Assembly (NCBI GenBank): GCA_050874485.1
Contig: JBNMKT010000001.1
Location: 1 to 43,618, forward strand
Reading direction: 5' to 3'
Origin: a bacterium
GTDB lineage: Bacteria; Bacillota; Clostridia; Lachnospirales; Lachnospiraceae
Length of the DNA: 43,618 nucleotides
Both the position numbers and the translations under genes were made by a program. Numbering within the stretch: position 1 is the stretch's first letter; each line of letters opens with the position of its first letter. This document shows, in pieces, positions 14,211-32,951 of the stretch. The notes beneath the pieces were generated by a model. The model did not search any database. It was not told the DNA's origin and saw nothing but the letters and a program-made list of their open reading frames with translations.

Positions 14211-14214
14211 ATGT

Positions 14215-15573
14215 CTAAAACTCCAGTTCAATATTGATACGTTCGTCAGTGATCACCACACGCCGGATGATCAGACGCAGGATCTCCTTCTTCTCATCCA
14301 ATGTCATATACTCCCACATATCCTTCAGATTTTCAAGCTTCTCATAGATAGCAGCCCGTTTGTCAGAAAGTGCCTTTCCGCGAACCTCATTTTCAATCTG
14401 CGCCTTGATACTCTCCAACTCCTTCTGATTTTCCTTGATCGTATCCAGCAGTAGATCATCGGCACTATCCGCGTACAGATCATACAGACGACGGATCTTC
14501 TTTGACACATTCGCGGCTCTGGCTTCCAGCATCTCAAGCGTAGAGGGCGCATTCGTCGAATCACTACTCTTGTTCGATACATCCATTTTCAGATTTAGGA
14601 TATGATCTACCACAATTTCTTCGACATCCTTCGCCCACAGCCTCGTCTGATCACAATCCGGATTTTTCACAAGATACGGCTTCGATGTCTGTTGGGAATA
14701 GCACACGAGCTTATGACCTTTCGTGCTCCACTTCTGATAGCGCATCTTCGCTCCGCATTTTCCACAGTAAACCAGTCCGGTAAGCAAGTTTTCGGTATAG
14801 TTGACCTTCTTCTTGGAGCGTTCCTCCATTTCCTGCATTGCCTTATAATAGGTTGCCTCGTCGATGATCGGCTCGTGCCGCCCCTTATACTCCTCACCAT
14901 TGTACTGAATAATACCAATATTGCTTTTTCTCTGCAAAATCTGCATCACCAGGCGCTCATATTTTAGACCAAGCGTATTCGCGATCTTTTGTGGAGACTG
15001 TCCGTCGATGTATAGCTTGTAGATCATGCGCACCTTCTCCGCGTCCTTATTCGGTACAAGGATACCCTGTTTTGAATCATAGTCATATCCATAGGGAATA
15101 CGACCGCCACCCATCCAATAGCCTTCCTTCACACGCTCTCGCATACCCATACGGGTTCTCATCCGGATGTTTTCTCGTTCCAACTGTGCAAAAGCAGCCA
15201 GTATTCCGATCATTGCGCGTCCCATCGGTGTTCCTGTATCTAACTGTTCTGTCAGAGAAACAAAATCCACACCATAAGGATCAAACAGATCCTCTATGAT
15301 ATATAAGACATCCTTCTGGGATCTCGACAATCGATCCAGCTTGTAAACAACGCACCGTTCCAATTTGCCGCCTTTGATATCGGCTATCATGTGTTGCATT
15401 TCTGGTCGGTCAATATTGCTGCCTGACCAGCCGCCGTCAATATAGAGTTCGTGGTTATCCCAACCATTGATCGTACACGCTGCCAGCAGCTTCTCTTTTT
15501 GCGCATCAATGGAATAGCCTTCCTCTGCCTGTGCATCTGTCGAAACTCGAATATATAATGCAGTTTTCTTCAT
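14215..15573 (-). CDS. Large serine recombinase (SpoIVCA/CisA-like integrase), 452 aa
   Basis: YIRVST catalytic Ser, DRLSR, GR...AQLERE, PYGY recombinase domain, CGKCG..C..C zinc ribbon and coiled coil. GGGAG RBS before ATG 15573. Stop lies 4 nt from the attL arm. Confidence 0.95.
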   Translation of the reverse strand: MKKTALYIRVSTDAQAEEGYSIDAQKEKLLAACTINGWDNHELYIDGGWSGSNIDRPEMQHMIADIKGGKLERCVVYKLDRLSRSQKDVLYIIEDLFDPYGVDFVSLTEQLDTGTPMGRAMIGILAAFAQLERENIRMRTRMGMRERVKEGYWMGGGRIPYGYDYDSKQGILVPNKDAEKVRMIYKLYIDGQSPQKIANTLGLKYERLVMQILQRKSNIGIIQYNGEEYKGRHEPIIDEATYYKAMQEMEERSKKKVNYTENLLTGLVYCGKCGAKMRYQKWSTKGHKLVCYSQQTSKPYLVKNPDCDQTRLWAKDVEEIVVDHILNLKMDVSNKSSDSTNAPSTLEMLEARAANVSKKIRRLYDLYADSADDLLLDTIKENQKELESIKAQIENEVRGKALSDKRAAIYEKLENLKDMWEYMTLDEKKEILRLIIRRVVITDERINIELEF

Positions 15574-15665
15574 TCTATCATATCTCTCCCTCTTATAATA
15601 GGAACTTTCCATCATTGTAGCAGATTCTTCTCCAGATTTCCACCTTCAATATATGGTTATTTTCT

Positions 15666-15735: not shown

Positions 15736-15918
15736 TTATGCTGCGTTCTGTGTATCAGCTTCCTCATGTTCCGCTCTCACACTACGCACTTTCCTTGGAG
15801 CTAGGACCGTACGTTTTAAAAATTGCACCGCCCGCTCTCCAAGCTCATATTGACCACTACGAACCAGTTCTGTAACATCCTCTCCACTTGCATTGGTTAT
15901 CGTTCCTATATGTACCAT
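15736..15918 (-). CDS. 60-aa protein, paralogue 1 (candidate recombination directionality factor)
   Basis: MVHIGTITNASGEDVTELVRSGQY is near-identical to the ORF at 30184-30366. Start lies 4 nt after the resolvase stop. Confidence 0.75.
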   Translation of the reverse strand: MVHIGTITNASGEDVTELVRSGQYELGERAVQFLKRTVLAPRKVRSVRAEHEEADTQNAA

Positions 15919-15922
15919 CCGA

Positions 15923-16552
15923 TCACACCCTTTCTTTATCTGACGTTTTCTGCAGTTCCCCTGCCAGCTTATAAAAAGACGATCGTTTTAGTCCCGTCAG
16001 CCGCATCGCCTCTCTTGCCGAAATTTGTCCATTTTTCCACTCATTGAGCACCACATCCAGATTTTCCGGTATGCTGACCCTTGGGCGTCCTAAATGCTTT
16101 CCTTTCTTCTTTGCCGCATCAATACCTTGCCGTTGCCGCTTTCTTATTGTAAGCCGCTCCTGTTCCGCGATGGATGCCAGCACTTCGATCAGGATATTGG
16201 TCACCATCTCCATGATCCACTCCTGTCCCTCCAGGACATCGATCAACGTAGTCGGTAGATCCAGTACCTTCAATCTGATCTTATGATCCCGGAACCACTG
16301 CAGTTCTCCCTTGATGTCCGCTTTGTTTCGACTTAATCTGTCAAGAGACATGACGTATAACGTATCTCCGGCGCGCAGCCCAAACAATCCTTTCAATGCC
16401 TGATAACCCGGACGCTCCAAATCCTTTCCGGAAGCCTTATCTACCACTATACAATCCTCCGGAACAAACTCGCTGAGTGCCAGTATCTGGCGGTCAAGGT
16501 TCTGCTCTGCAGAACTTACCCTTGCATATCCCATGATTCTCCCTGATTCCAA
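15923..16552 (-). CDS. Small serine resolvase/invertase with C-terminal HTH
   Basis: GYARVSS..QNLDRQ, DK.SG, DRLSR, RQRQGI..AK..G..LGRP and HTH tail. GGAGG RBS. Confidence 0.92.
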   Translation of the reverse strand: MESGRIMGYARVSSAEQNLDRQILALSEFVPEDCIVVDKASGKDLERPGYQALKGLFGLRAGDTLYVMSLDRLSRNKADIKGELQWFRDHKIRLKVLDLPTTLIDVLEGQEWIMEMVTNILIEVLASIAEQERLTIRKRQRQGIDAAKKKGKHLGRPRVSIPENLDVVLNEWKNGQISAREAMRLTGLKRSSFYKLAGELQKTSDKERV

Positions 16553-16570
16553 TAAAAATTCCTCCCTTAC

Positions 16571-16696
16571 CGTCCAAAAAGGTTCTGCCGGTTTTCAGTC
16601 ATATCCGAAAACTCAAACAGAACCTTTTCAAACAATTATTTGTGAACTATTTTCCTTTCCAAGAAGGTGTACCTTTACGGACACACGATCTGTGTC
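16571..16696. promoter_or_regulatory. Putative res site / resolvase binding sites
   Basis: Clustered dyads immediately upstream of the resolvase: AAAAGGTTCTG (16577-16587)/CAGAACCTTTT (16618-16628), inner GTTTTC/GAAAAC, AAGGT-GT-ACCTT (16664-16675) and GACACA-N5-TGTGTC (16680-16696). Confidence 0.55.
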
Positions 16697-16709
16697 AGCG
16701 TCTTTAACC

Positions 16710-17630
16710 TTACGCTGCGATCGAAAGTCCATCTTCCTTACTGTAATGGTAGATGTGATTGGAGAGCCTATCTTCCACCGACAACTGTATTTCATTAATG
16801 TCATGTACTACATCACACAGATATGGGAGATTTTTCACCTCTGAAACTGCCACCACCAGCGTCTCGTGAATTGATGAAGGGATAATATAGATATCTTCTC
16901 CTTTTCGATCCACGATCTGATCCATAACATCAGCAAATAACATGTACACAGCTCCAAAATGACACGCCTCATTCGTCAGCACATACAAAGGGTTGTTTAA
17001 CACCATCCGCTCATTACAAAGAAGCAGTTCCCGATCCCTTTCACTCAACATGCTGCTGATTGCATTTGTAATGCTCACAAAAGAGATATTCTCCTGTCTG
17101 GTATTCTGCAATGCAATCTCATAGACCGTCTCCTCGTCCTGTTCCCAGATTGCAAGATGCTCTTTTCTCACAATGACATAAGCTACTCCATCTCCGGAAG
17201 GGTGATCCATCTTCACATACACAACTGCCGACAGATCCAGATAGTCCCTATGGATTGCCGTATCCAGTGTTTCCCGGTTCATGTCCGCTGAGATCACCCG
17301 GAGATATAACCGGCTCTTTACGCGTTCCCAGTCCAGAAAATCATGGACTTCAATCTTTTTGATATTCTCATCCTCTGCATAATACAGCCAAATTGCCTGC
17401 ACAATTTCATCCAGCGTCATGTCATCCAGATATTCCTCATACAAAAGGTCTAAATAGAATACCGGTGATACCTTGCTGTCTGCCGACCGTATCACAATTC
17501 CTCTGCGCTTCAGACCGTTATTCTTATTCACCGTCTCTATACAGACATCGTCACCGTCACTCGCTGTCTGTCGCAGTCGTTTCAAAAGTTCCTCTTCAAA
17601 TGCCTCTCCTACTAATCGTGTTTCTTCCAT
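16710..17630 (-). CDS. DUF5688-family protein
   Basis: KNNG...GI, SP.FYL, LYVLTN...GA, YIIPSSIHE and ED.LSN.IY pattern. Confidence 0.75.
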   Translation of the reverse strand: MEETRLVGEAFEEELLKRLRQTASDGDDVCIETVNKNNGLKRRGIVIRSADSKVSPVFYLDLLYEEYLDDMTLDEIVQAIWLYYAEDENIKKIEVHDFLDWERVKSRLYLRVISADMNRETLDTAIHRDYLDLSAVVYVKMDHPSGDGVAYVIVRKEHLAIWEQDEETVYEIALQNTRQENISFVSITNAISSMLSERDRELLLCNERMVLNNPLYVLTNEACHFGAVYMLFADVMDQIVDRKGEDIYIIPSSIHETLVVAVSEVKNLPYLCDVVHDINEIQLSVEDRLSNHIYHYSKEDGLSIAA

Positions 17631-17642
17631 TGCCTTATCCTC

Positions 17643-18449
17643 CTATGCTGCCTGATTCTCATATACGATTTCATTTGCGATCTCGCTCATGTCTGCGCTG
17701 ATATTGGTCTTGATCGTCTCATCCGTGGATAATACACGCTGAAAGTCCGTTTTCAGCGGCGCGTACTTCAAAGCCTGCTTGATGACCGTTTTCTTTGCCA
17801 TCTCCTCATAGCAGGATTTCCACGGTGAGTAACTGCTCCCGAATGCCTTTGAATAGTTCGATGCATACAGATCCATCTCCTGTTTGCTCATGACACTAAA
17901 GCCGTAACCGCCATTCGATGTCTTGAACAGCCCATAGAAAAAAACCGACTCGCCACGATCAGCGATTTCCGGTCTGTGTATCAGCTTCGGGTTTAACCCG
18001 TATTCATATTCAAAATAGTCATTCTCATAAACAGTCTGTGCCTGTATCGTCTGCATCTGTCCATTACGGTATGCCAGTTCGATCAGCCCCTTGTAACCAA
18101 TCTGAAACTGACACTCCAGGACACCCTTATTCTTGTAAGGGATCAGATATGCCTGACCCAGCGGTGTGTTGGGTTCCAAACCAAGCTGCGCTGCATTTAA
18201 TAGGGCAGCAATAAAACTCATTGGCGTGCACTTCTGCAGTTCCGGTGTGTTGTTCAGCGCAGACAACGCAATCCTTGTAAAGCGCTCCGGTGTCATGACG
18301 CTAGGCAGGGCTTTCTTTAATTCCGGTCCAAGTGCTTTCACGATGTCCGGTATGGACGAGTTCTTTTTCAGCTTCACGCTGCTGTTTTCTGTCTTTGTAA
18401 CGGCAGCTGCCTGTGCCGCCAGTTCTTCCTTAATATCCTTCTGCTCCAT
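17643..18449 (-). CDS. recT: RecT-family single-strand annealing recombinase
   Basis: ERFTRIAL, CTP.SF..ALL.AAQLGLEPNTPLGQAYLIPY, FQIGYKGLI.LA.R and W...YEEMAKKTV. Confidence 0.93.
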   Translation of the reverse strand: MEQKDIKEELAAQAAAVTKTENSSVKLKKNSSIPDIVKALGPELKKALPSVMTPERFTRIALSALNNTPELQKCTPMSFIAALLNAAQLGLEPNTPLGQAYLIPYKNKGVLECQFQIGYKGLIELAYRNGQMQTIQAQTVYENDYFEYEYGLNPKLIHRPEIADRGESVFFYGLFKTSNGGYGFSVMSKQEMDLYASNYSKAFGSSYSPWKSCYEEMAKKTVIKQALKYAPLKTDFQRVLSTDETIKTNISADMSEIANEIVYENQAA

Positions 18450-18460
18450 GATAATCCTCC

Positions 18461-19396
18461 TTATGCTGCCGGTGCATACTTCACATTGAAGCGCCGGCTG
18501 GTAACTTCCTTTATATACTGGTCATAGATCTCTGGTTGCTCCTCTTTTAACCGCTTTGCATCAATACGGTTCTGATTTGCCTGTACCCATGAGATCCGGT
18601 AATCTTCTGCAACTGCATAACTCGCGTCCTGCATCTGCAGTTTAATCTTCTGATCGATCTGCTCTTTCTCCATTTCCAGCTTCTTCACAAGCTGTTCGAT
18701 CTCTGCCCTGCGTGACAGCTGCTCCTTCATGCCAAACAACTGGATCTCCTTTTTCTCGTCTCCGTGATAAAGTTGCAGTAGCATTTCAGAATATGCCTTG
18801 CTTCCGTCCGGATCAGGTGCAATGCCTTTCAACACATGATCTTCCCAGAACTGCTTTTCAATAATGATAAGGTTCTGTATCAGTTCCTCGTCACGCTCAA
18901 TCTTTCTTATGACAAATTCCCTGCCCATGATGAGCGCAGCCACATACCATGTCTTATAACCGGAAACCGCCAGATAATGCTGCACCTGCATTTGGTAATG
19001 AAGCGGCGTCTTTCCGTCGCTCCACTTATCAGCGGAATAAGCACTGACTGTCTTGCATTCCAGTCCGGCTTCTTCCCCTACGATCAGACGGTCAAAATCC
19101 GCTAACATGAACGGATGATCTTCATTCTGATAGACAGCGTTTGCCCTCCGTACCTTGAGTCCCGTTTCCTCTGTAAACCGCTTCGCTACATATTCTTCCA
19201 GATCGCGCCCCTGACGCATCGCCTCATTGTCAAAATTCTCCGTCTCCGCTGACAGCTTGTCATGGTAGACCTGAAAAGCGCTGCTATAGGGATTCATTCC
19301 GGTAATTGCACCGATGTCTGTGCCTGTCAGCCCCGTCTTTCGGATGCGGAGCCATTCTTCTTTTGGCAGATCCACGGTTGAAACTAGTCTTTTCAT
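18461..19396 (-). CDS. YqaJ-like (lambda exonuclease family) viral recombinase/exonuclease
   Basis: EWL..RK.GL.GTD, G..LE..VA..F, A.FDR, LECKT and Y..QVQHY.AV. Confidence 0.93.
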   Translation of the reverse strand: MKRLVSTVDLPKEEWLRIRKTGLTGTDIGAITGMNPYSSAFQVYHDKLSAETENFDNEAMRQGRDLEEYVAKRFTEETGLKVRRANAVYQNEDHPFMLADFDRLIVGEEAGLECKTVSAYSADKWSDGKTPLHYQMQVQHYLAVSGYKTWYVAALIMGREFVIRKIERDEELIQNLIIIEKQFWEDHVLKGIAPDPDGSKAYSEMLLQLYHGDEKKEIQLFGMKEQLSRRAEIEQLVKKLEMEKEQIDQKIKLQMQDASYAVAEDYRISWVQANQNRIDAKRLKEEQPEIYDQYIKEVTSRRFNVKYAPAA

Positions 19397-19397
19397 G

Positions 19398-19535
19398 TCA
19401 GATCATCCCTCCTTTTACGCATGGAATCATATCCGATATGAAGCGTGCCAAATCCTGTCTGAATATGGATACCAAGACGATAAGCACAGTCAATATCAAT
19501 ATAATCTCCACAGTTCCCAAGCCTCTGTTTTTCAT
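19398..19535 (-). CDS. 45-aa Flp1-like type IVb prepilin (not in ORF track)
   Basis: Hand translation MKNRG|LGTVEIILILTVLIVLVSIFRQDLARFISDMIPCVKGGMI. AGGAGG RBS, Gly(-1)/Glu(+5) and a hydrophobic helix. TGA lies 1 nt before the yqaJ ATG. Confidence 0.8.
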   Translation of the reverse strand: MKNRGLGTVEIILILTVLIVLVSIFRQDLARFISDMIPCVKGGMI

Positions 19536-19592
19536 TGTCTGTTTCCTCCTGCGGTACATTTGCCCCGCTTATAATGATCTCTGTTTTCATAG

Positions 19593-20519
19593 CTACGCCA
19601 CCATCTGATACGCACGGGCGATCATAGGATTCCCTTCCACCGTCTTGATGAACAGGTTTTCACTGTAATTCTTGGTGCGTCTGATCGGTTCTGCATGGGT
19701 AGCGAAATCAGATACTGCATTGATAAAACGGTACGCATTATTTCCTACGTGCTGCAGATCTGGAGCATCAAAGTAACGGCGCTTTAAGTCCTCCAAAAGC
19801 CTTCCGTTATTCTTCCGCTGGATGTCAGACTGCTCCACACTAAGCGGAAAGAAGGTCTGCATGTACTCGATCACCTTTTTGTCCGAGAGCTTCGTCTGAT
19901 TCAGTCGGTCGATCGTCCTTCCCAGCTCACTCATGTAACCATGTGCAAATAACAGCGTTTCCTTTGCGTCATCCATACGATCCATGATGTTTTCCGTATG
20001 CTTCGTCTGCCAAATCCGCTTTGCTGTCGATAAAGCAAGATTCAAAGTGTTGGAGCATACCACGCGTACCGGCGTCATACATACCTTAATAGAAGATGTA
20101 CCGTCATGTGAGTTCATGACCAGCAGATAGGGCGTGATCTTATCCCCTGCGATAATGTACTGTTCCGGTAGCTTGGCTAAAATCCATGTCCGCCTGCCGC
20201 CCTGCAGCGATCCAGCCGTCTCATACTTCACGCCAGCTCCCAGCAATTCATCCGTGAAGCGGAACGCATCGACATTCTGTACGACCTTGTAACGATCTGT
20301 CACAATGCCAAGCTGCTGAAAGTCTGAATCACGGTAGTTGAGCTTGTAACCCGGAATATAGAAACCTTCCTTTGTGTAGACATCCTTCTGTCTTACCTCC
20401 CAGTCCAGGCCTGCCACCTGCAGCGCAGTCTTTGAATCCGGTGCCTCACTCACCACGTTCCCCAGCCCATGCCAAGGTGTTGTTCTTGTCGAAAACATTG
20501 TCTCTACTTCATGTGCCAT
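19593..20519 (-). CDS. DUF932/DUF945-family phage/plasmid protein
   Basis: MAHEVETM..R..PWHGLG, AGLDW.V, Y..VQN, ETAGSL.GG, NSHDG, TPVRVVC.NTL and H. Confidence 0.88.
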   Translation of the reverse strand: MAHEVETMFSTRTTPWHGLGNVVSEAPDSKTALQVAGLDWEVRQKDVYTKEGFYIPGYKLNYRDSDFQQLGIVTDRYKVVQNVDAFRFTDELLGAGVKYETAGSLQGGRRTWILAKLPEQYIIAGDKITPYLLVMNSHDGTSSIKVCMTPVRVVCSNTLNLALSTAKRIWQTKHTENIMDRMDDAKETLLFAHGYMSELGRTIDRLNQTKLSDKKVIEYMQTFFPLSVEQSDIQRKNNGRLLEDLKRRYFDAPDLQHVGNNAYRFINAVSDFATHAEPIRRTKNYSENLFIKTVEGNPMIARAYQMVA

Positions 20520-20543
20520 AATAAGTTATCCTCCTTTTGACAG

Positions 20544-20571
20544 AAAAAGCCCCCGGCGCTGTGCCGGGGGC
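20544..20571 (-). terminator. Strong intrinsic terminator-like hairpin just upstream of the DUF932 RBS
   Basis: GCCCCCGGC-N5-GCCGGGGGC followed by TTTTT on the minus strand. Confidence 0.75.
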
Positions 20572-20642
20572 AATTGATTATTACTACTGCAATGATATGT
20601 AATTCAAAAAGAATACTTTATCAGCACAATCCTGTGATCGCA

Positions 20643-20789
20643 CTATTTCTTTCGAATATGGTTCAAAATCTTTTTTGCTGCCTGTTCCTTTGCCCTGCAG
20701 CTCGGACAGATATGCGTCACAGATGTCAGATCCTTCATATAGATCCGCCCACATCTTTGGCATCTTTCCGTTCCTGATACAAAAGTCAT
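20643..20789 (-). CDS. 48-aa zinc-ribbon protein (not in ORF track)
   Basis: Hand translation MTFVSGTERCQRCGRIYMKDLTSVTHICPSCRAKEQAAKKILNHIRKK, with CxxC-x14-CxxC. AAGGGGTG RBS. Lies directly after the box promoter. Confidence 0.7.
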   Translation of the reverse strand: MTFVSGTERCQRCGRIYMKDLTSVTHICPSCRAKEQAAKKILNHIRKK

Positions 20790-20824
20790 CCCGGTTCACC
20801 CCTTTCTTTGATTCCCTTACACGC

Positions 20825-20856
20825 AGTATAGCAAATTCCAGTGACACAGTTTGTCA
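20825..20856 (-). promoter_or_regulatory. Box promoter 1 (TGACA-N5-TGTCA, 11 nt, TATACT)
   Basis: TGACACAGTTTGTCA at 20842-20856; -10 TATACT on the minus strand at 20825-20830. Confidence 0.8.
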
Positions 20857-20906
20857 CCGACAGAGAAAAAATCTTTTTTCTATTTCACAATCTTTTTCAC
20901 TCCACA

Positions 20907-20938
20907 TGACATGGTCTGTCATCCCCCAAATGTATGAT
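20907..20938 (+). promoter_or_regulatory. Box promoter 2 (TGACA-N5-TGTCA, 11 nt, TATGAT)
   Basis: TGACATGGTCTGTCA at 20907-20921; -10 TATGAT at 20933-20938. Confidence 0.8.
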
Positions 20939-21005
20939 AAATACAGCAAGAGCCACTTCAAGTGACTACAAAAACAAGCAAAACACCAAGAAAGGACAGA
21001 AACAT

Positions 21006-21800
21006 ATGGAAGAGACAAAAAACACTGAAATTCAAGCAGAAGAAGCCTATTCGTATCATTACGAAGATTATCACACACCACTGGCATGCGCTTTTCATTC
21101 CAGACTGGAAGCATTCAAGTATACAGATTATTACAGCCTGTCGTTTGACAGCCGGATCGGTTCCGAGTTCTATAACAGCAAATCTGCATGTGAAAAAGCA
21201 CGCAAGCAGTGCATCGAAACAGCCTATTACGCTGCAAAACAGCACTTCACGCCCTCATCTTCTCTGTGTATCGCTGATGACGCAGTAAAATTTTACTCCA
21301 AGCGCGTAGAAAGTGTTTTCTTCCCGGTCATTGACCGCATGGAAATGCTCTGTAAATCCACCAATCAGCCGACTGCTTTCACCAAGTTAAAAGAGCTTGT
21401 AGATGGATGCAAAGCAGAACTGACCAAGCGCTTCGAGAATGAGTTACGTAAAAATGCAAGCTACTACGCCCTGTACGATGTCAGCTACTTCATTGAAAAA
21501 GTTCCGATTGAAAAGCACGATTTCCGCGTTTCGGAAGATGTCGTATTCAAGCTGCTGGAAACACTGATCGCTGACAATGTCCAGTACACGATCACCGACA
21601 TCTATACCTCTATCGGAGAGATGGAACACGATCTGAACAACCACGCCGGCACTTTTTTCAACACCGCGTACAGCGAATACACGAGCTATGTATCCGAGAT
21701 TGAATCACTCTTAGACGGCATCGGTAACGGCTTCCCTCCTCTGCAGGAGGGCGAAAATGCCAATGATTATGTTCATCGGATTTGTTCTTCACAATATTAG
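21006..21800 (+). CDS. Hypothetical helical protein (264 aa)
   Basis: Long clean ORF. AAGGA precedes ATG 21006. Preceded by box promoter 2 and followed by terminators. Confidence 0.7.
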   Translation: MEETKNTEIQAEEAYSYHYEDYHTPLACAFHSRLEAFKYTDYYSLSFDSRIGSEFYNSKSACEKARKQCIETAYYAAKQHFTPSSSLCIADDAVKFYSKRVESVFFPVIDRMEMLCKSTNQPTAFTKLKELVDGCKAELTKRFENELRKNASYYALYDVSYFIEKVPIEKHDFRVSEDVVFKLLETLIADNVQYTITDIYTSIGEMEHDLNNHAGTFFNTAYSEYTSYVSEIESLLDGIGNGFPPLQEGENANDYVHRICSSQY

Positions 21801-21824
21801 TTTTATATCTTTCCGCAAAAAAGA

Positions 21825-21905
21825 ACCGTTCATGCCGCATTAGAGCATGAACGGTGACTTTTTATTGTATACCTATACAATAAAACCACCAGCTAAGCTG
21901 GTGGT
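21825..21905. terminator. Three consecutive hairpins between convergent genes
   Basis: ACCGTTCATGC/GCATGAACGGT (21825-21855), TTTTATTGTATA-CC-TATACAATAAAA (21860-21885) and ACCACCAGCT-A-AGCTGGTGGT (21885-21905). Confidence 0.8.
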
Positions 21906-21912
21906 GCTAATT

Positions 21913-22824
21913 TTAGTATAAGGATGTAAGAAAATCCTGCAAATTTTTATCCGTAGATGTCACAGATCCAGTTTCATGATCCCAGAACACAACATTCTTA
22001 TTTGCTAAAGAATAACAAATATAATTGCCAAACACAACCGTTTTAGAAGACTCCGACAACATTCTGTATGTAGCTGCTTTATGCTCCGGGTCGCGTGAAT
22101 TATTTGGTCCTGGAGTATCCACAAGCACTAACGAAACATCATCTGCCGTAACAAAAGGAATATTTCCTTCTACATGAACTCGAGACACCTCTGGATTACT
22201 ATTCAAACTATTCATTATATCAAAGGTCAGTTCCGGATGTGTCTGTATCAGATTTCCATCTGAATCGTACACCTTTGCTGTGAAATAGTCAGCATCATTA
22301 TCTTTGATTTCTGTAATGGTTGCAGTACATGCTTCTTGTTTTGCAGGCATTAACCGCTGTCTGAGAAGTGCATTGATTAATGTCGATTTTCCAGCACTCA
22401 TGGTAGCTACTACATTTACCTCGAAATCACTACTCTTTGCCAAATTAAATGCCTTAATAACATCCGGCTGTTTCAATTCTTCGAATGGTCCCGCCTGAAT
22501 TTCATCAAAGATCTCACTAATAGCAGCTTCCTTATCTGCAACTTCCTTTGCCGGAATATGTTCAAGCTCGATGTTTATATTTTTCTTTTTTGCATCCCGC
22601 GCCATTGCCTCGACATCTTCGTAATCTAGCGTGGTTCCCTGAAAGATAATTTTAAAATCGCGAACACTACATTCCTCAAATAGAATATCGGGCAAGTCTT
22701 CGATCCATTCCTGCAATCTTCGATCATAAAAATTCAACTGGCTGTTCTGCTTTGGAGCTACGCCATCAACTAAAACTTCTGTTTCCAAACGATACGGATT
22801 GTACTTAATTGAAATCTCTGTCAT
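21913..22824 (-). pseudogene. Truncated dynamin-like GTPase fused to a SMI1/KNR4-like C-terminal fragment
   Basis: ATMSAGKST (G1), ACTA (G2) and DTPG (G3) present; G4 NKxD and helical stalk absent. Tail FGNYICY...VVFWDHE...LQDFLTSLY. Confidence 0.7.
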
Positions 22825-22830
22825 TATTCA

Positions 22831-24153
22831 TCACCTCATATTGTAAATTATATTTTCCAGTTGCAATAAACCCGAATGTTTCAGCACCTGGTAACTTTTT
22901 TCTTCGTTATCAACTTGAACTGCTTTTTGAATATCTTCTGGATAATAACTATCAAACTGATATTCATTTTTCCTCATTTTCCTTGCCATTCTATCTAGTT
23001 CATCCAACTCATCTTCATTTAACTTTTCTCCAAAAATAGACATTTTGGCAAGATACGCCGCATATGCAGAAACAGGAGCTATATTCAATTCATCAAATCC
23101 TATTTCATGCAAATCAGCTACAATCTGTTTTAAACTGTCAGGAACAGAGTCATCTTTTCCGAACGTATCTAATTTATTTACTACAAAAATAATTTTACCA
23201 TGAAAGTTTTTCTGTACAAATAAAAGATGCTGCCTATCGTCTTCTGTTCCAAGACTTTCACCATTCATCAGATATATCAGTGCGTCCGCATCTGATGTAC
23301 TCAATGCATTCTCTGTGAGTTTTCTGTGATCCTTATTCTGTGCTGAATTAACCCCCGGTGTATCTATAAGCCACATTCTCTTCGGGGTTGTGCCAATTGT
23401 CCTAAATGAAACACCCACTTCTATCTCTGAACTATTATTGTCAACATTGTCATCCATTAAGGTATCATAATCAGCGTCCAATTCTAGAAGGTAATCATAC
23501 TCATAATATAAATTGTCTTCAAATGCCTTATTTTCAATATAATGCAACTTTGAAGTACAAGCAGCATGCTGTGTTTTGCTCACTTTTTTCCCAACTAACG
23601 CGTTTAACAGAGTCGACTTTCCGGCACTCATATTAGCAGTCACAATCACTTTTATAGGTTTTTCCTGCAAGAAATCTCGATTCTTATCCCAGCACTCTCT
23701 CATATAATCAATTTTATCAATGTTCTCTACCGATACTGAAGCATCGTATAAATACTCAAAAACCTGACGGATTTTCTTCTGATACCGCTTATGATAGATG
23801 ACTGAAAGTTCTTCATATATTTTTTCTCCTTTGTCCTGATCCATATAAGCATTCATAAAGATGCAATCAAAAACCAAACAGTATCTATATGAAAAAAATT
23901 TAAATGGTTTAAACTTTGTTGCAACCACACGTTTGGATTTCTTTTGTATATTATATGCTGTTGGAAGATCGACAGGTTCGCTTCCAACTAACTTTTGGTA
24001 ATACAAAAGCAATGTTTGCTTCGCCCACAAATCATCTTTTGAATACTTCTGAACAAAGTAGTTCAAAACATTTACATACCTCAGCCTATATTTTTCTTCC
24101 AATATAGGATGTTTTTCTAACATCTGCGATACTTCCAAATGCAAGTCATTCAT
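22831..24153 (-). CDS. Dynamin-like GTPase (440 aa)
   Basis: ANMSAGKST, ACTS, DTPG, NKLD and PVSA motifs. Confidence 0.85.
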   Translation of the reverse strand: MNDLHLEVSQMLEKHPILEEKYRLRYVNVLNYFVQKYSKDDLWAKQTLLLYYQKLVGSEPVDLPTAYNIQKKSKRVVATKFKPFKFFSYRYCLVFDCIFMNAYMDQDKGEKIYEELSVIYHKRYQKKIRQVFEYLYDASVSVENIDKIDYMRECWDKNRDFLQEKPIKVIVTANMSAGKSTLLNALVGKKVSKTQHAACTSKLHYIENKAFEDNLYYEYDYLLELDADYDTLMDDNVDNNSSEIEVGVSFRTIGTTPKRMWLIDTPGVNSAQNKDHRKLTENALSTSDADALIYLMNGESLGTEDDRQHLLFVQKNFHGKIIFVVNKLDTFGKDDSVPDSLKQIVADLHEIGFDELNIAPVSAYAAYLAKMSIFGEKLNEDELDELDRMARKMRKNEYQFDSYYPEDIQKAVQVDNEEKSYQVLKHSGLLQLENIIYNMR

Positions 24154-24250
24154 AAAATCCTTCCTCCATACAAGTCATTCTCATATTTTTTCATATGCCG
24201 GAGCCCTCATCATACATATATGTCATTTATACATCAGGCTTTGACTTCTT

Positions 24251-25210
24251 TTAGTTTATAAACTCAACATTATTTCCCTGACTTCTAAACCACATATCTA
24301 TTCCGTCTCCAAACACCTCCGCTCTTATAATATAAGCACCATTATCTTCTTCAACAATCTCTGCTGTAGGCAGTTTATCCAAAACAGCTTCCACCGATAA
24401 GCCGGTATAGCGAAATTTCACTTTCCGTAGCTTACCACCATACATAAACTGTATCCGTTTTCTAAATTCTCCCTCTTCAAAACGATTCGCATAAGGCACT
24501 CGATAGTGTTCATCGGTCACCTTTACATCTATTATCCGATCAATCCGATAAATTGTAGGAAAGGAATCGTTTAAAACATCAAAGTCTGCCCTTGTTGCTT
24601 CATCGTCAATAAATGCCGTCATGTAGAAATAAAACTCAGAAAACATGATTGCAGCAGGCATAACTTTACGATTCACAACCTTTTTGTCCTTCAAGCGCAT
24701 ATATGAAATCTCAATGTACTGATGTTGCTGAATTGCTTGACCGATCAACCACATCTTGTTAATAAACACCGATTTGTGTCTTGGCTCTACATAATGGTAC
24801 TCTTCATTGCAGATCAAGTCTTTCACTAATTTTTGATTTTCTTTCGGCACACAACAATCAAGTAACTTGTCCAACATAGCGACCATTTCTTTTTTGGTAA
24901 ACGCTCTGCTATCCAAAAGGATTTTACAAATAGCAAGAATTTCTGCATTACTAAATTTCAATTGATACAGCTGTCCTAACCGGAAACCTTTTTTTGCACG
25001 ATCATAGACCACAGAATTTACAATGCCACTGTCCACCACCGCTTTATCTAAAAACTTACGAATATCATCAATATCTCTCTGAATCGTCCGTTCATTCACG
25101 CCATAGTTATTGGCTTCCTCTGCTTTTTGGATAACAGCTCCATTCAAAAGTTTCGTGTATAGATCAAGCACTCGTTCTGTTTTATCTGATGTACCCTGCT
25201 CAACTGCCAT
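24251..25210 (-). CDS. WYL-domain transcriptional regulator (wHTH-WYL-WCX)
   Basis: N-terminal HTH GVNERTIQRDIDDIR, FSEFYFYM (WYL-equivalent), YRIDRI and C-terminal W..SQG. Confidence 0.92.
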   Translation of the reverse strand: MAVEQGTSDKTERVLDLYTKLLNGAVIQKAEEANNYGVNERTIQRDIDDIRKFLDKAVVDSGIVNSVVYDRAKKGFRLGQLYQLKFSNAEILAICKILLDSRAFTKKEMVAMLDKLLDCCVPKENQKLVKDLICNEEYHYVEPRHKSVFINKMWLIGQAIQQHQYIEISYMRLKDKKVVNRKVMPAAIMFSEFYFYMTAFIDDEATRADFDVLNDSFPTIYRIDRIIDVKVTDEHYRVPYANRFEEGEFRKRIQFMYGGKLRKVKFRYTGLSVEAVLDKLPTAEIVEEDNGAYIIRAEVFGDGIDMWFRSQGNNVEFIN

Positions 25211-25241
25211 TTAATCACTCCTGTCTTTAAAAATTTATCCT

Positions 25242-25273
25242 ATTTTACCAAACAGCAATGACACATCCTGTCA
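25242..25273 (-). promoter_or_regulatory. Box promoter 3, upstream of the WYL gene
   Basis: TGACACATCCTGTCA at 25259-25273; 11 nt; TGG-TAAAAT extended -10 at 25242-25247. Confidence 0.8.
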
Positions 25274-25621
25274 CACATCAAAATTTTCTTCATTTACTTT
25301 ACTTAGATAAAGCAATTATACTCTTTAAACAATTCTATATCAATATTTTTGTGCATAATATTCATTTTTCTTCATTATTTCCTATCTTTTTAACAATTTC
25401 CTTTTCGTCCAGTGCTTTAGAACAATTATAAGTATCCACGCATACACATAGACAGCTCGAATCTTTCTCTTGTCCCCATTTCTCATATTTTCTATTTTAC
25501 AACAAATTTTCGTTGCCGCAACTATTAGCATAAGCAAATACTGCTTTCCGCTTATTATTCTCTTTTGATAACTCTTGTATTATTTTCATATACTATGAGT
25601 TGTATTTGGAGGTTACCGACT

Positions 25622-25954
25622 ATGGACTATGTCTTTCTTGGGAAACGTATCCGCGAGGAGCGCTTACGGTTAAATCTAACGCAGGAAAAGCTGGCAGAAG
25701 CCTGTGGCATTTCCACCGCATATCTGGGACAGATTGAACGCGGCGAGCGTTGCATCACCCTTGATAAGCTGATCCCACTGGCAAACTGTTTGGGAACTAC
25801 GATTGATTTTCTTCTCTCAGATTACATCAACCCCCAGAACGACACTAACTTTAATATTCTCTTTCAGCTATTTCAAGGTAAGAGCGATCAGGAAAAGGAG
25901 CTTGCCATTCAACTGCTCAAACTTCTCTTTTCATATACAGATGGACGTCTCTAA
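25622..25954 (+). CDS. XRE-family HTH transcriptional regulator
   Basis: LGKRIREER...LTQEKLAE.CGIS..YLGQIERGER. GGAGG precedes ATG 25622. Confidence 0.9.
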   Translation: MDYVFLGKRIREERLRLNLTQEKLAEACGISTAYLGQIERGERCITLDKLIPLANCLGTTIDFLLSDYINPQNDTNFNILFQLFQGKSDQEKELAIQLLKLLFSYTDGRL

Positions 25955-25962
25955 GCGCCAAT

Positions 25963-25992
25963 TGTCCGGTATGCGTAACTGCATACCGGACA
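25963..25992. terminator. Intrinsic terminator between convergent genes
   Basis: TGTCCGGTATGC-N6-GCATACCGGACA followed by TTGTTTTT. Confidence 0.8.
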
Positions 25993-26003
25993 TTGTTTTT
26001 ATT

Positions 26004-26911
26004 CTATAACATTCCAAATCCCAGTGTTCCACACTCATTGACCAGATCAAAGACCACAACCGTCTTGTTATCCCAGCTGATCAGCTTCTGCTCGCCTTTT
26101 CCATATCCATCGCCATCATTCAATAGATAATTGTCAACCTTAACAACATTCCAGTCAGAATCGTATGTCAGCACAGAATATGCACCGTAGATCTTCTCAT
26201 CACTATTATTGTTCAGCAATGCCACCGTACGGTTATCTTCATAACTCATGCTCACATCAGCCTTGGCTTTCCCATTCTTTTTTCCGATCAACTTAATCGA
26301 AGTCATTTCAGGAGAGGAAAATTCAACATGCTCCACAGCCTAAAGTACACACGCTGCTCTCCTTTGCCGTTTACACTGACATAACAGTTGCCAACACCGT
26401 CATAGACCTTCTTCCAGTTCTTGTCATAGCCTACCAGATCCACAGAAACCACTAACGGACGATCTGTTTTGTTCTTGACAACAACACTGGCACAGCTATC
26501 ACTTTCTCTCTGGAAGTCTTTGAGACTCATAATTGATTTGTCACTCTTGTAACTCTTTACGACTACATTACGCGTCACCTTACCTTTGCCGGATTTAATC
26601 GTGATCTTTGCCTTTCCTGCCTTTTCAGCAGTAAGAACACTGCCTGCAACTGATACTACCTTAGAATTGCTTGTGGTACACTTTATCGGTCCGGCGGCTC
26701 CTGCAGTAACACGAACTCCCACACGTTCGCCCTCTCCATTCACCAACCACATCTCCTGATTGTTGCTCAGATTGACTTTCAGCGCACTTGCTGCCTCTGC
26801 CTCCACGCAAGCAAAACTCATATTCTGCCCACCGATCAGCCCCGTCATGGTCAATGACAGTGCCAGTACAAGTCCTAATCCTTTTCTTTTCATCCATTGC
26901 GTTCTCTTCAT
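26004..26911 (-). pseudogene. Secreted Ig-like (Big_2-type) protein, split by a frameshift near 26340
   Basis: Signal peptide MKRTQWMKRKGLGLVLALSL..., TSNSKVVSV..G.LTA.K.GKA.IT motif. The two overlapping ORFs share a repeated YD..W..V...GKGEQ domain. Confidence 0.6.
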
Positions 26912-26939
26912 AGCGCACGCCTCCTTTTTTTATAAAAAG

Positions 26940-26971
26940 AGCTTACCATAGCACTATGACATACCGTGTCA
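26940..26971 (-). promoter_or_regulatory. Box promoter 4, upstream of the secreted protein gene
   Basis: TGACATACCGTGTCA at 26957-26971; 11 nt; TGG-TAAGCT at 26940-26945. Confidence 0.75.
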
Positions 26972-27195
26972 CTTACAAAAAAATTTTCTACGATCCAGCA
27001 GGTGCCGTGCCAGCCGGGACTAGCCCGGGTTCGACCACTATTATAATATCTAATCTCACTAGGAGCAGTTACCATATCTGCCCATAGATCCAGTGACTGG
27101 CAGCTTCCTACAGATTAAGCCAACAAAAAAGCCCCTGTTTGATTCTTCATCATAACAAGAGCTTTCGCTATACGATCCATCTGTAGCAAATCAAC

Positions 27196-27420
27196 TTATG
27201 CAGCATATTCTACAATTGCAACTTCTGTCAGGGCTTCTTTTAACTTTTTTACAATCTCCTCAATTCGTGCGACAACCTCTCCACTATAAGAGACTTCTCC
27301 GCACTGGCTACATTTATGGCATGGCACATGCTTAATAATAATAAAATGTCCATCCAAGTCCACCATGTAATTGCAGAAATCATCTTTCATTTCACCTTTA
27401 CAATAAAAACATTTATCCAT
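27196..27420 (-). CDS. YgiT/MqsA-type zinc-finger protein (putative antitoxin)
   Basis: C..CKG...IIIK.VPC.KC.QCGE pattern, directly downstream of a DUF4258-like gene. Confidence 0.85.
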   Translation of the reverse strand: MDKCFYCKGEMKDDFCNYMVDLDGHFIIIKHVPCHKCSQCGEVSYSGEVVARIEEIVKKLKEALTEVAIVEYAA

Positions 27421-27424
27421 GCAA

Positions 27425-27733
27425 TCATTCCTTCCTCTTTTTTAATTCTTCATCCCATTGAGATGGATCCGGTTCATACGCTGTAATTAGCCATAGCTTA
27501 TGTTCTCCAATACCTACAACTACATGCAGTTTTCGTTCGTGAATCGTCATCCCCAAGATCAAACAGCTTGGATATGGATAATCATCGGGATATTCCTCAA
27601 TAATTTCCCCGTTTTTTATTACTTCCTTAATTTCCTCATACGAAATATTCCGCTGCTGACATCTCATCAGAATATGCTGTGTTACCTCGATCGTTGCATC
27701 TCTGCACAATAATTTAATCTGATCTATGTCCAT
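27425..27733 (-). CDS. DUF4258-family protein (putative RelE-like toxin)
   Basis: T.H...R...R.I, GEIIEEYPDDYPYPSCLILG, LHVV and ITAYEP...W. Confidence 0.85.
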   Translation of the reverse strand: MDIDQIKLLCRDATIEVTQHILMRCQQRNISYEEIKEVIKNGEIIEEYPDDYPYPSCLILGMTIHERKLHVVVGIGEHKLWLITAYEPDPSQWDEELKKRKE

Positions 27734-27922
27734 GTAGTACCATCTCCCCTCGCAGCTTATATTTTCTCCATTAATATTATACCCTCTCCGTCCAAATTTG
27801 TACACACCTTTTGCTCCTGATCCGAATATCGCAATACATATGTTTCATTGCCCCTTATTTAACGTGGTCGACATTTCTAAACATTCATTTAAATAAACCA
27901 AAATCCAAGGGGGGGATTTATA

Positions 27923-28108
27923 ATGTACGATAATGAAATCAGCGATCTGATCAGTATAGAGGATCTATGCGACATGCTAGCCATCGGAAAAAACACTGCG
28001 TATCATCTGTTGAACACTAATGAAATCCAAGCCTTTCGTATCGGGCGTAGTTGGAAGATTCCTCGCCAGAGCGTCATCAACTATATCAAAAACAAAAGTG
28101 GACTCTGA
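27923..28108 (+). CDS. Excisionase-like HTH_17 DNA-binding protein
   Basis: L.IGKNTAY.L.....I.AFRIGRSWKIP. GGGGG RBS. Confidence 0.85.
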   Translation: MYDNEISDLISIEDLCDMLAIGKNTAYHLLNTNEIQAFRIGRSWKIPRQSVINYIKNKSGL

Positions 28109-28139
28109 TCCTTTTCTATGGGTAGGCAGTGTTAGCTGC

Positions 28140-28763
28140 CTACTCTCCCTTCTTTCCCTGTTCAAGTAATGCCTGGTATTGAGGATCTGTTTTTCTGAAA
28201 CAGTTCGCATTCTTAAATGTCACAGGAGACCTTTGTGCATAATTTCCCAAAATCTGATCAAACTGGTTATTCCTTGCCACTCGTTCTTCGTTTGTTTGAT
28301 GAAATTTCTTACCATCAACATAACTAACGCTGTTTCCAGCAAAATGTACATGCATAAATGAACTATCCGTTTTTTCCTTAGGTCTTGTCAAATGTGTTGC
28401 CGCAATAACTTGATATCCCATATCATAAAATTCTCGTCCCATTTCTTCAAATGCCATTACTACTAAACTTGGATTGCAGCCAACCTGACAAAATGCTTCT
28501 TCTTTAATCGAATACTGCATATGGAAAGCTCTCCTTCCACCTCTGGAATCTATATTATATACTCTCTGAATTTGATTCACCAGTTCAATCTGTTTAGCAA
28601 GGCTGTCATCATTATCTATACCATAACTTCTATAACTTACTAAATCAGTAGCATCTCTCTTATCTCTACAACAATACTTTGCGACTTTTTCAAAAGCATC
28701 TTTATTTCCATAGGCGCCTTTCTTATGATTCGAAATATTTATAAGCATTCCTTCAATTGACAT
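28140..28763 (-). CDS. Short relaxase/mobilization nuclease (HUH)
   Basis: N-terminal Tyr helix, AFH...S, YQVIAATH......HVHFAGNSVS..DGKK. Confidence 0.8.
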   Translation of the reverse strand: MSIEGMLINISNHKKGAYGNKDAFEKVAKYCCRDKRDATDLVSYRSYGIDNDDSLAKQIELVNQIQRVYNIDSRGGRRAFHMQYSIKEEAFCQVGCNPSLVVMAFEEMGREFYDMGYQVIAATHLTRPKEKTDSSFMHVHFAGNSVSYVDGKKFHQTNEERVARNNQFDQILGNYAQRSPVTFKNANCFRKTDPQYQALLEQGKKGE

Positions 28764-28993
28764 ACAATCCCTCCAATCTGTTGTTTTAATTCCGGTAAAT
28801 CATTGCACATCTGCGTAAGCTGCACGCAAAGCCGCGCTGTCATCTGTTGCTTACGCTTGTTTGTTATCCTTTTAGGAATACAGCAAGTCTCTATGTAATC
28901 TCCAACAGACATGCCATTCTCTTTTGCATGATCACTAATCGCTTGCTTTGTGATCTGTGAACATCGAAACTCTACCTTACTGTCTTTTGACAT
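28739..28993 (-). CDS. MobC-like ribbon-helix-helix accessory protein
   Basis: KVEFRCS...K..I...A...GMSV.DYI pattern. Overlaps the relaxase start. AGGAGG RBS. Confidence 0.65.
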   Translation of the reverse strand: MSKDSKVEFRCSQITKQAISDHAKENGMSVGDYIETCCIPKRITNKRKQQMTARLCVQLTQMCNDLPELKQQIGGIVCQLKECL

Positions 28994-29356
28994 CCATTTG
29001 ACCCTCCTTGTCATTTTGGGGATTCTATGAGAAGTTTGAATATATGTATAAATATAATTTCTTTATCATAATATACTTTCTATTTGTCATATTTCTTTAT
29101 TTCTGTATATTCTCTATTTTCAAGAATACCTTTTTCAGAATTACATATCTTTGATTTATATATATAACAAGTATACCTTTTGTCGGACATTTCTTCTTTC
29201 CCGATCAAAGCATCCCTCATTACAGAAGCCCTCCTTTGCATTTTTACTTATAGTATTGTTTATTCTATCCCTTCACGCTTTGTATTTGCCCACTTCTTAT
29301 CGTATAATACCGAAAAAGAAAGGTGTGCATCTCTGCCCACCTTCTCGCGGCCTGTT

Positions 29357-29761
29357 TTACACAGACATCACACATTTTTCGTTATAATACGGTATCAGTG
29401 AATCATGTGTCACAAATACCATTCCTTCTACCTTTGCCTGGGCTATAAGCAGCCGATCAAAAGGATCATTATGTCGCGGAGCATCTTCCGGTCTCACCAA
29501 AGTTTTGATCTTGTAGATATGCTCTGCAGCAATAGGCAACTGATGCAAGCCTGCTTCCACACATAATTCCACAAACGCTTCCTCTGATACAGGCATTTCC
29601 TCCGGTCGGATCTTATGCTTAATTGCGATCTCCCAAACCGAAGCCATGCTATAATACACCGTATTCCCGGATGATTTCAATGCTGCCACAACCTTATCCG
29701 GTAATTTTTCCGGAGCTGTGAATGCCCACAAGGCAATATGCGTATCTAATAACAGCTTCAT
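29357..29761 (-). CDS. PIN-domain (VapC-type) toxin
   Basis: LLDTH..LW, S.ASVWEIAIK, H.DPFDRLLIAQA and T.D. Confidence 0.92.
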   Translation of the reverse strand: MKLLLDTHIALWAFTAPEKLPDKVVAALKSSGNTVYYSMASVWEIAIKHKIRPEEMPVSEEAFVELCVEAGLHQLPIAAEHIYKIKTLVRPEDAPRHNDPFDRLLIAQAKVEGMVFVTHDSLIPYYNEKCVMSV

Positions 29762-30033
29762 CCTTCACTTGCCCCAAACATTTCTGCAATTTCATCATTA
29801 GCGCCATCAATATCGTCCGGTAACTGATACTTCCCTTTTGCAAGCCCCAGCTTAACGCCCGTATCCGGTACGGTCAGATGTATGGTAAACGGCATAGCTT
29901 TGTCCTGTACGCTCTGCTTTGCGAAGATACGCACCGCCTCTGCAAAAGATGTCCCCATGTTCTTATAAAGGCTCTCCACCTGTTCTTTGAGATCAGCGTC
30001 CATTCTCACTTGTAACGTAGCTTCTTTTGCCAT
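29758..30033 (-). CDS. RelB/DinJ-type antitoxin
   Basis: LQVRMD..LK......Y..MG....EAVRIF..Q.V....MPF. ATGA overlap with the toxin start. Confidence 0.85.
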   Translation of the reverse strand: MAKEATLQVRMDADLKEQVESLYKNMGTSFAEAVRIFAKQSVQDKAMPFTIHLTVPDTGVKLGLAKGKYQLPDDIDGANDEIAEMFGASEG

Positions 30034-30051
30034 GAGATCCCCTCCTTTTTT

Positions 30052-30069
30052 GTAATACAATTGTACTAC
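30052..30069. promoter_or_regulatory. Putative TA operator palindrome
   Basis: GTAATACAATTGTACTAC (perfect core TACAATTGTA) just upstream of the antitoxin RBS, overlapping a TACAAT -10. Confidence 0.6.
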
Positions 30070-30144
30070 GTTATTTTATCTTACGCAACCCTTTCTTATG
30101 CAGTCCCCCTCTCTCCCGGCAAGCGACATTTTTTGACAAAGACA

Positions 30145-30172
30145 CGGCACCTTGGATTTCTCCAAGATGCCG
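30145..30172 (-). terminator. Hairpin downstream of paralogue 2
   Basis: CGGCACCTTGGA-TTTC-TCCAAGATGCCG (one mismatch). Confidence 0.6.
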
Positions 30173-30183
30173 CCATGCTTGTC

Positions 30184-30366
30184 TTATGCACTTACCTTTG
30201 TATCCGTCCCTAAATGATCGCCGTTGGCAGCCTGCTCCTTACGACTTGCCTGTAGCACACGGTTCAAATAGTCGTTTGCCCTGTCACTCAAAGCATACTG
30301 CCCGCTCTTGACTAATTCCGTGACATCTTCTCCTGCTGCATTCGTAATCATACCAAGATGTACCAT
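30184..30366 (-). CDS. 60-aa protein, paralogue 2 (candidate recombination directionality factor)
   Basis: MVHLGMITNAAGEDVTELVKSGQY. GGAG RBS. Preceded by a perfect dyad AATCATGTA-GTTA-TACATGATT (30379-30400). Confidence 0.75.
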   Translation of the reverse strand: MVHLGMITNAAGEDVTELVKSGQYALSDRANDYLNRVLQASRKEQAANGDHLGTDTKVSA

Positions 30367-30419
30367 CAATATCACTCCAATCATGTAGTTATACATGATT
30401 GTTGCCGGAATGATATTTT

Positions 30420-32930: not shown

Positions 32931-32951
32931 GTCAAAACCTCCATATTTGGC

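Follow-up and report, generated by a model that had tools for sequence, protein, structure and literature searches.

In the skin elements of Bacillus subtilis (recombinase SpoIVCA) and Clostridioides difficile (CD1231 with the recombination directionality factor (RDF) CD1234), a large serine recombinase splits the sporulation sigma gene sigK, a small RDF stands under a sporulation promoter, and elements of many sizes have the recombinase alone in common; skin is described as leaving the chromosome in the mother cell alone and being lost (PMC5025042, bioRxiv 2022.02.25.481979). In SPbeta, inserted in spsM (SprA/SprB; PMC4191935), and gin, inserted in gerE (GirC/GirX; PMC5595907), the recombinase integrates and, together with a small RDF, excises, and these accounts likewise describe mother-cell events, by which the spore genome is not altered. 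The sporulation rearrangements that such sources describe are one-way mother-cell events (PMC4191935, PMC13492144, bioRxiv 2022.02.25.481979), and the element survives in the spore because the rearrangement happens in the discarded mother cell. Here we analyse a stretch of 43,618 nucleotides from a member of the Lachnospiraceae (contig JBNMKT010000001.1 of assembly GCA_050874485.1; hereafter the window), in which an element of 18,789 bp interrupts sigG. It resembles skin in its large serine recombinase, but the target is a forespore factor (sigF in a subclade of relatives) and the candidate promoter motif is of forespore type, so that the event would have to be reversed. Unlike skin, some relatives of the element would use inversion, with the recombinase acting in trans.

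The Listeria comK prophage is a case of reversible active lysogeny. SpyCIM1 in mutS-mutL is another, in which excision restores the host gene and re-integration follows later, as proposed here; that account has no developmental compartment and no inversion form, and it lists the sporulation cases as non-reversible (PMC13492144). Integrative mobilisable elements (IMEs) of Firmicutes share with the window element a relaxase and MobC in the absence of a type IV secretion system (T4SS), toxin-antitoxin (TA) cargo and a serine recombinase that disrupts its target gene. The review of these elements describes their targets as dispensable and no RDF as known for serine-recombinase IMEs (PMC5704250), whereas the target in the window is an essential sporulation gene. 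Our literature search, which left subscription papers and supplements outside its scope, found no published account of an interruption or inversion of sigG or sigF.

A recombinase-bearing element splits sigG at a proline codon

The window corresponds to contig C1 in a 2.5-Mb assembly, 93% complete, from a clostridial organism that bears spore genes. The 5' half of its single-copy sigG (13901..14187, forward strand) ends at the CC of a Pro codon, with a profile match at 13901-14191 to positions 1-97 of the SigG model, and the 3' half (32977..33466, forward strand) resumes with a match at 32978-33466 to positions 97-257. Joined by coordinate, the halves give a frame of 258 codons with no stop, so that precise removal of the element restores the frame. 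The element is poorer in GC (41%) than its flanks (48-49%). Within the 93%-complete genome we found no further sigG; sigF, sigE and sigK are intact there, and spo0A, spoIVA, spoVT and small acid-soluble spore protein (SASP) genes lie above their cut-offs. These last genes are present in all five genomes asked, of which this is one. In C. difficile, heat-resistant spores are reported to require sigG (PMC3789829). As a side observation, sigG of this genus does not directly follow sigE; the two genes are opposite to each other with a metallo-beta-lactamase-fold nuclease gene between them (window 13901-35935; loci L016-L021).

A gene for a large serine recombinase with resolvase, recombinase and Zn-ribbon domains (14215..15615, reverse strand; likely start 15573) abuts the left junction. 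We read attL at 14162..14212 (host arm, CC crossover at 14186-14187, element arm) and attR at 32950..33000 (element arm, CC at 32975-32976, host arm), both on the forward strand. The crossover was placed at the CC because the arms of genome G373 share the CC alone as core. The junction arms of the window yield an attP that is symmetric around the Pro-codon CC at 19/30 positions. Both junctions could be read in 26 genome/contig pairs, and all 26 gave a symmetric attP (14-23/30 positions, compared with 7/30 in the empty control) and had the same codon split, with co-varying arms.

The recombinase clade was found in 15/400 genomes of the family (E<=1e-60) and in 18/398 of the class; five of the 15 family carriers are more distant (36-39% identical) and have no sigma half nearby. 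When 25 carriers were asked for sigG, 22 lacked an intact copy (four of these show one half only), and in the other three sigG is intact and the split gene is a sigF-like one located before spoVA. The recombinase was present in none of eight genomes asked that have an intact or empty sigG. It was not found in the assemblies of G005 and G016, in which the junctions are present, since their contigs break at the element.

The carriers of the split sigF-like gene form a subclade of the same recombinase (G082, G073, G311; loci L046-L048, L276, L277) that cuts at the same Pro codon, with intact sigG elsewhere in the genome; in G311 the two halves keep direct order at a distance of 83 kb. Because sigma-F could not trigger its own repair, the timing in this subclade would have to differ. 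An attP-type dyad follows the recombinase in 16 viral contigs, and two further dyads in loci of family f32 are likely terminators. One GenBank record labelled 'Bacteriophage sp.' (L304, MT839977.1) holds the junction of recombinase, attR and sigma 3' half, followed by host-like genes.

Fixed and inverted forms of split sigG in relatives

The split gene is fixed in several related groups. It was split in 8/8 genomes of at least 90% completeness in family f32, which here constitutes its entire order, and in 10/18 genomes of family f36, which make up two entire genera; five genomes of genus g404 gave a match, and an intact gene is absent from all five. The halves of these fixed forms lie among housekeeping genes and the recombinase is elsewhere in the genome; in G492 and G553, spoIIAA-AB-sigF stands directly after attL. 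The fixed recombinases group by host family, in a quick version of the tree that we used for host-wise grouping only and not for direction. With synonymous sites near saturation, pN/pS was 0.12-0.21 in the two halves and 0.18-0.23 in the recombinase, compared with 0.19 in sigE, and the halves and the recombinase thus appear to be under purifying selection in the relatives. The sequences show relatives that keep the att sites, the recombinase and a small open reading frame (ORF) without cargo, some of them in an inverted layout.

In every fixed-type genome with both halves on one contig, the halves are on opposite strands. They are 2.4 kb apart in G024, 26 kb in G413 (a segment with ftsZ, murD, mraY, ftsW and sigE), 30 kb in G849 (with ftsZ and sigE) and 49.6 kb in the closed genome G425 (with ftsZ, murD, mraY, ftsW, sigE and gltX), where the recombinase lies ~860 kb away. 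Three of the four pairs of inverted halves thus enclose core cell-division genes. In such a layout, recombination of attL with attR would invert the segment and assemble sigG, and nothing would be lost. Inversion would be the only way to rebuild sigG here, and since these assemblies show the split state, any such change in the forespore would need to be reversed. Direct-repeat forms are the window, G207, L075 and a 45-kb prophage in G372. G845, from the same genus as G024, has a layout that would suit a direct element, and in G844 the gene is intact; these three genomes hint at a path from an excision element to an inversion switch.

Taken together, these data lead us to favour, by a little, the view that, in whole lineages of gut Clostridia, a phage-type serine recombinase has been domesticated as a reversible germ-line switch. 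In this view sigG stays permanently divided into two pieces, at distances of up to tens of kilobases, and a programmed chromosomal inversion triggered by sigma-F in the forespore assembles it; after germination the recombinase flips the segment back. The window would then represent the mobile precursor.

Candidate directionality factors and a forespore-type promoter motif

Two small ORFs, 53% identical to each other, bracket the interval 15923..30069. The first, orf60 (15736..15918, reverse strand), lies next to the recombinase and is a candidate RDF; no forespore-type promoter was found before it in the promoter scans. The second, orf70 (30184-30366, reverse strand), forms a unit of its own (30144..30425) in which a promoter motif starts at 30425 and a terminator occupies 30173-30144. 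A homologue search with orf60 returned three close relatives, and the ESM Atlas gave no usable match for orf70. Upstream of the recombinase, a family of ORFs of 40-60 residues is present in 52/101 loci, a count that excludes the window's own and duplicate loci.

The promoters of sigG genes are described as sigma-F-type with a spacing of 14-15 nt (PMC5942855, PMC3789822). With a matrix whose training set was ten host sigG promoters and nothing else, the median score was 6.8 before the small ORFs vs 2.1 for 837 control genes. Eighteen of 32 small-ORF upstream regions exceeded the 90th percentile of these controls, and 10/32 exceeded the 95th percentile of shuffled sequence. A second motif was derived from 27 relatives, 22 of which have it 44-59 bases ahead of the start; when it was run over the window element, the site before orf70 came first among 75,050 positions. 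On these grounds orf70 is the best candidate for a developmentally expressed directionality factor. High matrix scores before relB and DUF4258 were set aside, as a housekeeping -35/-10 spacing fits there too (by eye in the case of relB).

For orf60, a complex with the C-terminal part of the recombinase was predicted with a score of 0.75, the best of three controls reaching 0.00; the mark for this score is reached by 116/157 solved and 2/215 mismatched pairs. The models agree in at least 58% of contacts, with a partner pLDDT of at least 71, and the predicted contact comprises the Zn-ribbon domain, the base of the coiled coil and the C-terminal strand of the recombinase. The SPbeta RDF is reported to bind the same integrase region, at the Zn-ribbon domain and coiled-coil base (10.1101/2025.01.03.631226). 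SPbeta and gin are described with a monocistronic RDF under its own sporulation promoter (PMC4191935, PMC5595907), which would be a further likeness if orf70 is the RDF.

We consider it probable that an RDF driven by sigma-F and the recombinase together rebuild sigG in the forespore, and that the recombinase alone re-integrates the trapped circle at outgrowth, with no need for the cargo. A forespore promoter read by sigma-F would switch on the small directionality factor (orf70/orf60), whereupon recombinase and RDF would excise the element in the forespore. The excised circle would be trapped in the non-dividing spore and hence not be lost in dormancy. With the RDF gone at outgrowth, the recombinase alone would put the circle back by standard serine-integrase chemistry; CD1231 and GirC are reported to integrate without their RDFs (PMC5025042, PMC5595907). 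The TA pairs of the element would at most punish a rare failure of re-integration, as on other IMEs.

Search for excised forms and the fate of the window copy

Excised forms were sought in four contig sets (X1-X4) from one study of bulk gut-type metagenomes, in which contigs drop rare forms; X1 is possibly the source of the window itself. The depth of the element was equal to or below that of the flanks in X1-X4. One empty-site contig (X4, depth 3.9) joins 14188 to 32978 and keeps the left-hand base after the CC; it was rejected as an excision product, as this base is not what a CC crossover would leave. G005 holds an element-bearing attR as well as an empty site with an identical host arm, and these two alleles are compatible with excision or a strain mixture. 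A contig of run X1 with 40 differences over the end of orf288 (21155-21782) points to a second allele or a related element in the sample.

Forespore excision with later re-integration had been put forward in the initial annotation, and the orf70 motif, the att arms and the fixed and inverted kin lend it indirect support. Several observations tell against it. No attP or circle joint was present in the contigs of X1-X4, and the base after the CC makes an element-free strain the more likely source of the empty site in X4. Among 22 congeners, 16 have an intact or empty sigG, two a split one and four no sigG match, which argues that within this genus the element inserted recently and can be lost, and that the behaviour of the window copy itself is read from its clade. 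In f32 and f36 the halves lie on different contigs with their orientation unread, the attR arm of G413 was also unread, and the related genomes and loci are not independent of one another. The matrix from host sigG promoters, which is independent of the relatives' motif, ranked the region upstream of orf70 only at the 78th percentile and the promoter of the window's sigG at the 38th, and the motif from the 27 relatives is unclear before the small ORF of G425. Neither orf60 nor orf70 matched the profile of the clade's small ORFs, profile-profile comparison included; the copy folded in the complex (orf60) and the copy with the promoter motif (orf70) are different ORFs; and the score of the complex may reflect likeness to solved integrase-RDF structures.

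The congeners with intact or empty sigG would also be expected if sigG were rebuilt and the circle often not re-integrated, so that spores yield cured progeny and the element persists by vegetative growth and mobilisation. The empty alleles found alongside the element and the presence of relaxase and MobC agree with such a life cycle. It is inapplicable, however, to the fixed and inverted forms, in which the intervening DNA is essential and vegetative assemblies are always split, and no coupling protein (TraG/VirD4 C-domain) was found in the 93%-complete genome. We regard this course as unlikely.

The initial annotation had also named a parasite that simply blocks sporulation. For the family this alternative is weakened; for the window copy it persists, as a parasite or dead end that never rebuilds sigG and leaves its host asporogenous. 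The absence of a circle from X1-X4 would fit, as would the 14.5 kb that the cargo puts between the promoter-bearing orf70 and the recombinase. Three near-complete congeners (G007, G012, G022) have no sigF/sigG-type match; sporulation has likely been lost within the genus, which thus tolerates that loss. On the other side, both sigG halves, the att arms and the recombinase are intact, as are spo0A, sigF, sigE, sigK, spoIVA, spoVT and the SASP genes, the clade's promoter motif is kept before orf70, and relatives appear to be under purifying selection. We therefore judge a sporulation block to be decidedly improbable.

Cargo of the element

The interval between orf60 and orf70 had been annotated as a plasmid-style maintenance kit that could solve the germ-line problem posed by a split sigG. 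Domain profiles confirmed the genes on which this was based, most of them within the interval. A small serine resolvase/invertase (15923..16552, reverse strand; PF00239, E 9e-28) is ~50% identical to plasmid recombinases of Bacillales. A short relaxase of MobA/VirD2 type (28140-28763, reverse strand; PF03432, E 3.5e-8) has its His motif at residue 124, and a MobC/NikA-like gene lies beside it (28739-29014, reverse strand; PF21983). Two type II TA pairs are predicted, both on the reverse strand: a YgiT finger (27196-27420) with DUF4258 (27425-27805), whose assignment as a toxin is based on a weak BrnT match below cut-off, and a PIN toxin (29357-29761) with a RelB/DinJ-type antitoxin (29758-30060). 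Just beyond the interval, an SF2 DEAH helicase (30420..32219, reverse strand) is 24-28% identical to the helicases of 10 small clostridial plasmids.

Half of the interval consists of genes that the kit had not included. DUF5688, RecT, YqaJ exonuclease, DUF932 and orf288 occupy 16710..21800. They are followed at 21913..25954 by likely defence cargo, namely two dynamin-like GTPases, a WYL regulator and Xre; the second GTPase is LeoA-like and the first (21913-22824) is apparently truncated, stopping after the first GTPase motifs and entering a short SUKH-like tail. An excisionase-like helix-turn-helix (HTH) gene (27923..28108, forward strand; TIGR01764) is a likely remnant of a tyrosine-integrase form of the backbone, and the interval also holds a lipoprotein-like gene. 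Between the helicase and attR, orf219 (32304..32963, reverse strand) gave a weak lead to HNH_repeat and only sub-0.9 leads in the ESM Atlas; in several viral contigs a homologue comes after the recombinase on the other side of attP.

Of the clustered dyad site described upstream of the resolvase, one 11-bp perfect inverted repeat (16577..16628), matched by 1/300 shuffles, stands out as a possible res or operator site. The number of dyads (reached by 74/300 shuffles) and the repeated 5-mer (63/300) are ordinary, and the distal dyad (~16658-16700) is also present in G020, where no resolvase adjoins. The dyad cluster, which is not above shuffles, gives no support for a three-site res.

No family match to capsid, portal, terminase, tail, VirB/VirD4 (T4SS), Rep or ParA/B was obtained among the proteins scanned (30 against Pfam, 28 against NCBIfam, 25 against PHROGs), which agrees with the initial statement that capsid and T4SS genes are lacking. 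A PHROG match to 'virion structural protein' was weak and partial and fell on the YqaJ exonuclease as a domain match. The relaxase had no plasmid match and was found in 0/300 family genomes at E<=1e-20. With its own integrase and att ends, relaxase and MobC and no T4SS, the element appears by its gene content to be an IME; it does not look like a prophage and seems to be without plasmid replication-initiator or partition genes.

The same backbone runs from tRNA-Leu to a tyrosine integrase in G020, a congener whose sigG is empty. DUF5688, RecT, YqaJ, DUF932 and orf288 are 91-97% identical there, Xre, DUF4258/YgiT and HTH 75-97% (DUF4258 and YgiT 87/97%), relaxase, MobC and WYL 43-49%, and the helicase 27%; a different GTPase trio takes the position of the dynamin-like genes. 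G001 has the same two ends, on two contigs. The resolvase and RelB-PIN were not seen in the backbone copies of G020 and G001. The window backbone thus appears to have swapped its tRNA-Leu tyrosine integrase for the sigG recombinase.

Homologues of the resolvase, relaxase, MobC, either TA pair or HTH were found in none of 27 other sigG- or sigF-splitting loci and segments, a result that is firm for the six complete cases only (G207, L075 and the G024, G425, G413 and G849 segments; the others are partial) and that covers homologues of the window proteins, so that unrelated TA families would be missed. The helicase had a homologue once (G005) and orf219 twice; in G845 the ORF after attL is orf219-like by eye, and homology is not claimed, as tblastn gave no match. 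The complete sigG element of G207 (2.5 kb) has a recombinase, a small ORF and, as its sole cargo, a bacterial microcompartment (BMC) shell gene (L040:11147-11860); that of L075 (7.6 kb) has MMPL, DUF308 and TetR. Both do without the kit genes, as do the fixed forms. Because the backbone stands at tRNA-Leu in two congeners and the 27 loci lack the kit, we take the kit for generic IME cargo: on the available sequences, the resolvase, relaxase and TA genes are ordinary mobile-element cargo and not the solution to the germ-line problem. TA systems and relaxases are described as common IME cargo (PMC5704250). Moreover, a spore does not divide, so that until the first division there would be little for multimer resolution and post-segregational killing to work on.

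Some features do favour a circle that depends on the kit, excised in the forespore, replicated by means of the helicase and resolved from multimers, with cured germlings killed by the toxins. All parts are present and apparently intact, and the resolvase and RelB-PIN are additions unseen in the tRNA-Leu form. A TA pair is reported to stabilise excised SGI1 (PMC5704250), and the SF2 helicase of pCD630, a small clostridial element that likewise has no known Rep, has been proposed as its replication protein (10.1101/198473). The pCD630 helicase is described with a CHC2 zinc finger, which was not found on the window helicase, and the similarity of the latter to plasmid helicases is low. With kit homologues missing from the other sigG and sigF loci, a backbone with relaxase, DUF4258-YgiT and helicase at a tRNA-Leu site unrelated to sporulation, no Rep or Par family match and an element depth not above the flanks, such a circle is in our view very unlikely.

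Two sporulation genes elsewhere gave irregular matches. G632 has spoIVA as two pieces on the same strand, separated by 35 kb (C1:161095-161379 and 196162-197361) and possibly by another intervening element, and in G557 (C6:3750-4205) the spoVT match begins only at model position 27, so that the gene is possibly split.

Discussion

The window element bears what appear to be the marks of a gene-intervening element: a split sporulation gene, a restorable frame and a large serine recombinase with a symmetric attP. It seems to depart from the described elements in one-way mother-cell excision, as its target is sigG and its inverted relatives cannot be one-way excisions. New here is the inverted, fixed layout of split sigG. 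If the forespore rearranges its own genome, the change has to be reversed, and the layout of the inverted relatives without cargo is one that makes such a reversal compulsory.

If this is true, a reversible checkpoint at the DNA level is added to sporulation between sigma-F and sigma-G, and there is a route from a mobile element to a fixed developmental part. It would also account for sigG genes annotated as broken in spore-forming gut Clostridia, and it would provide natural pairs of recombinase and RDF of which both directions are used within one life cycle.

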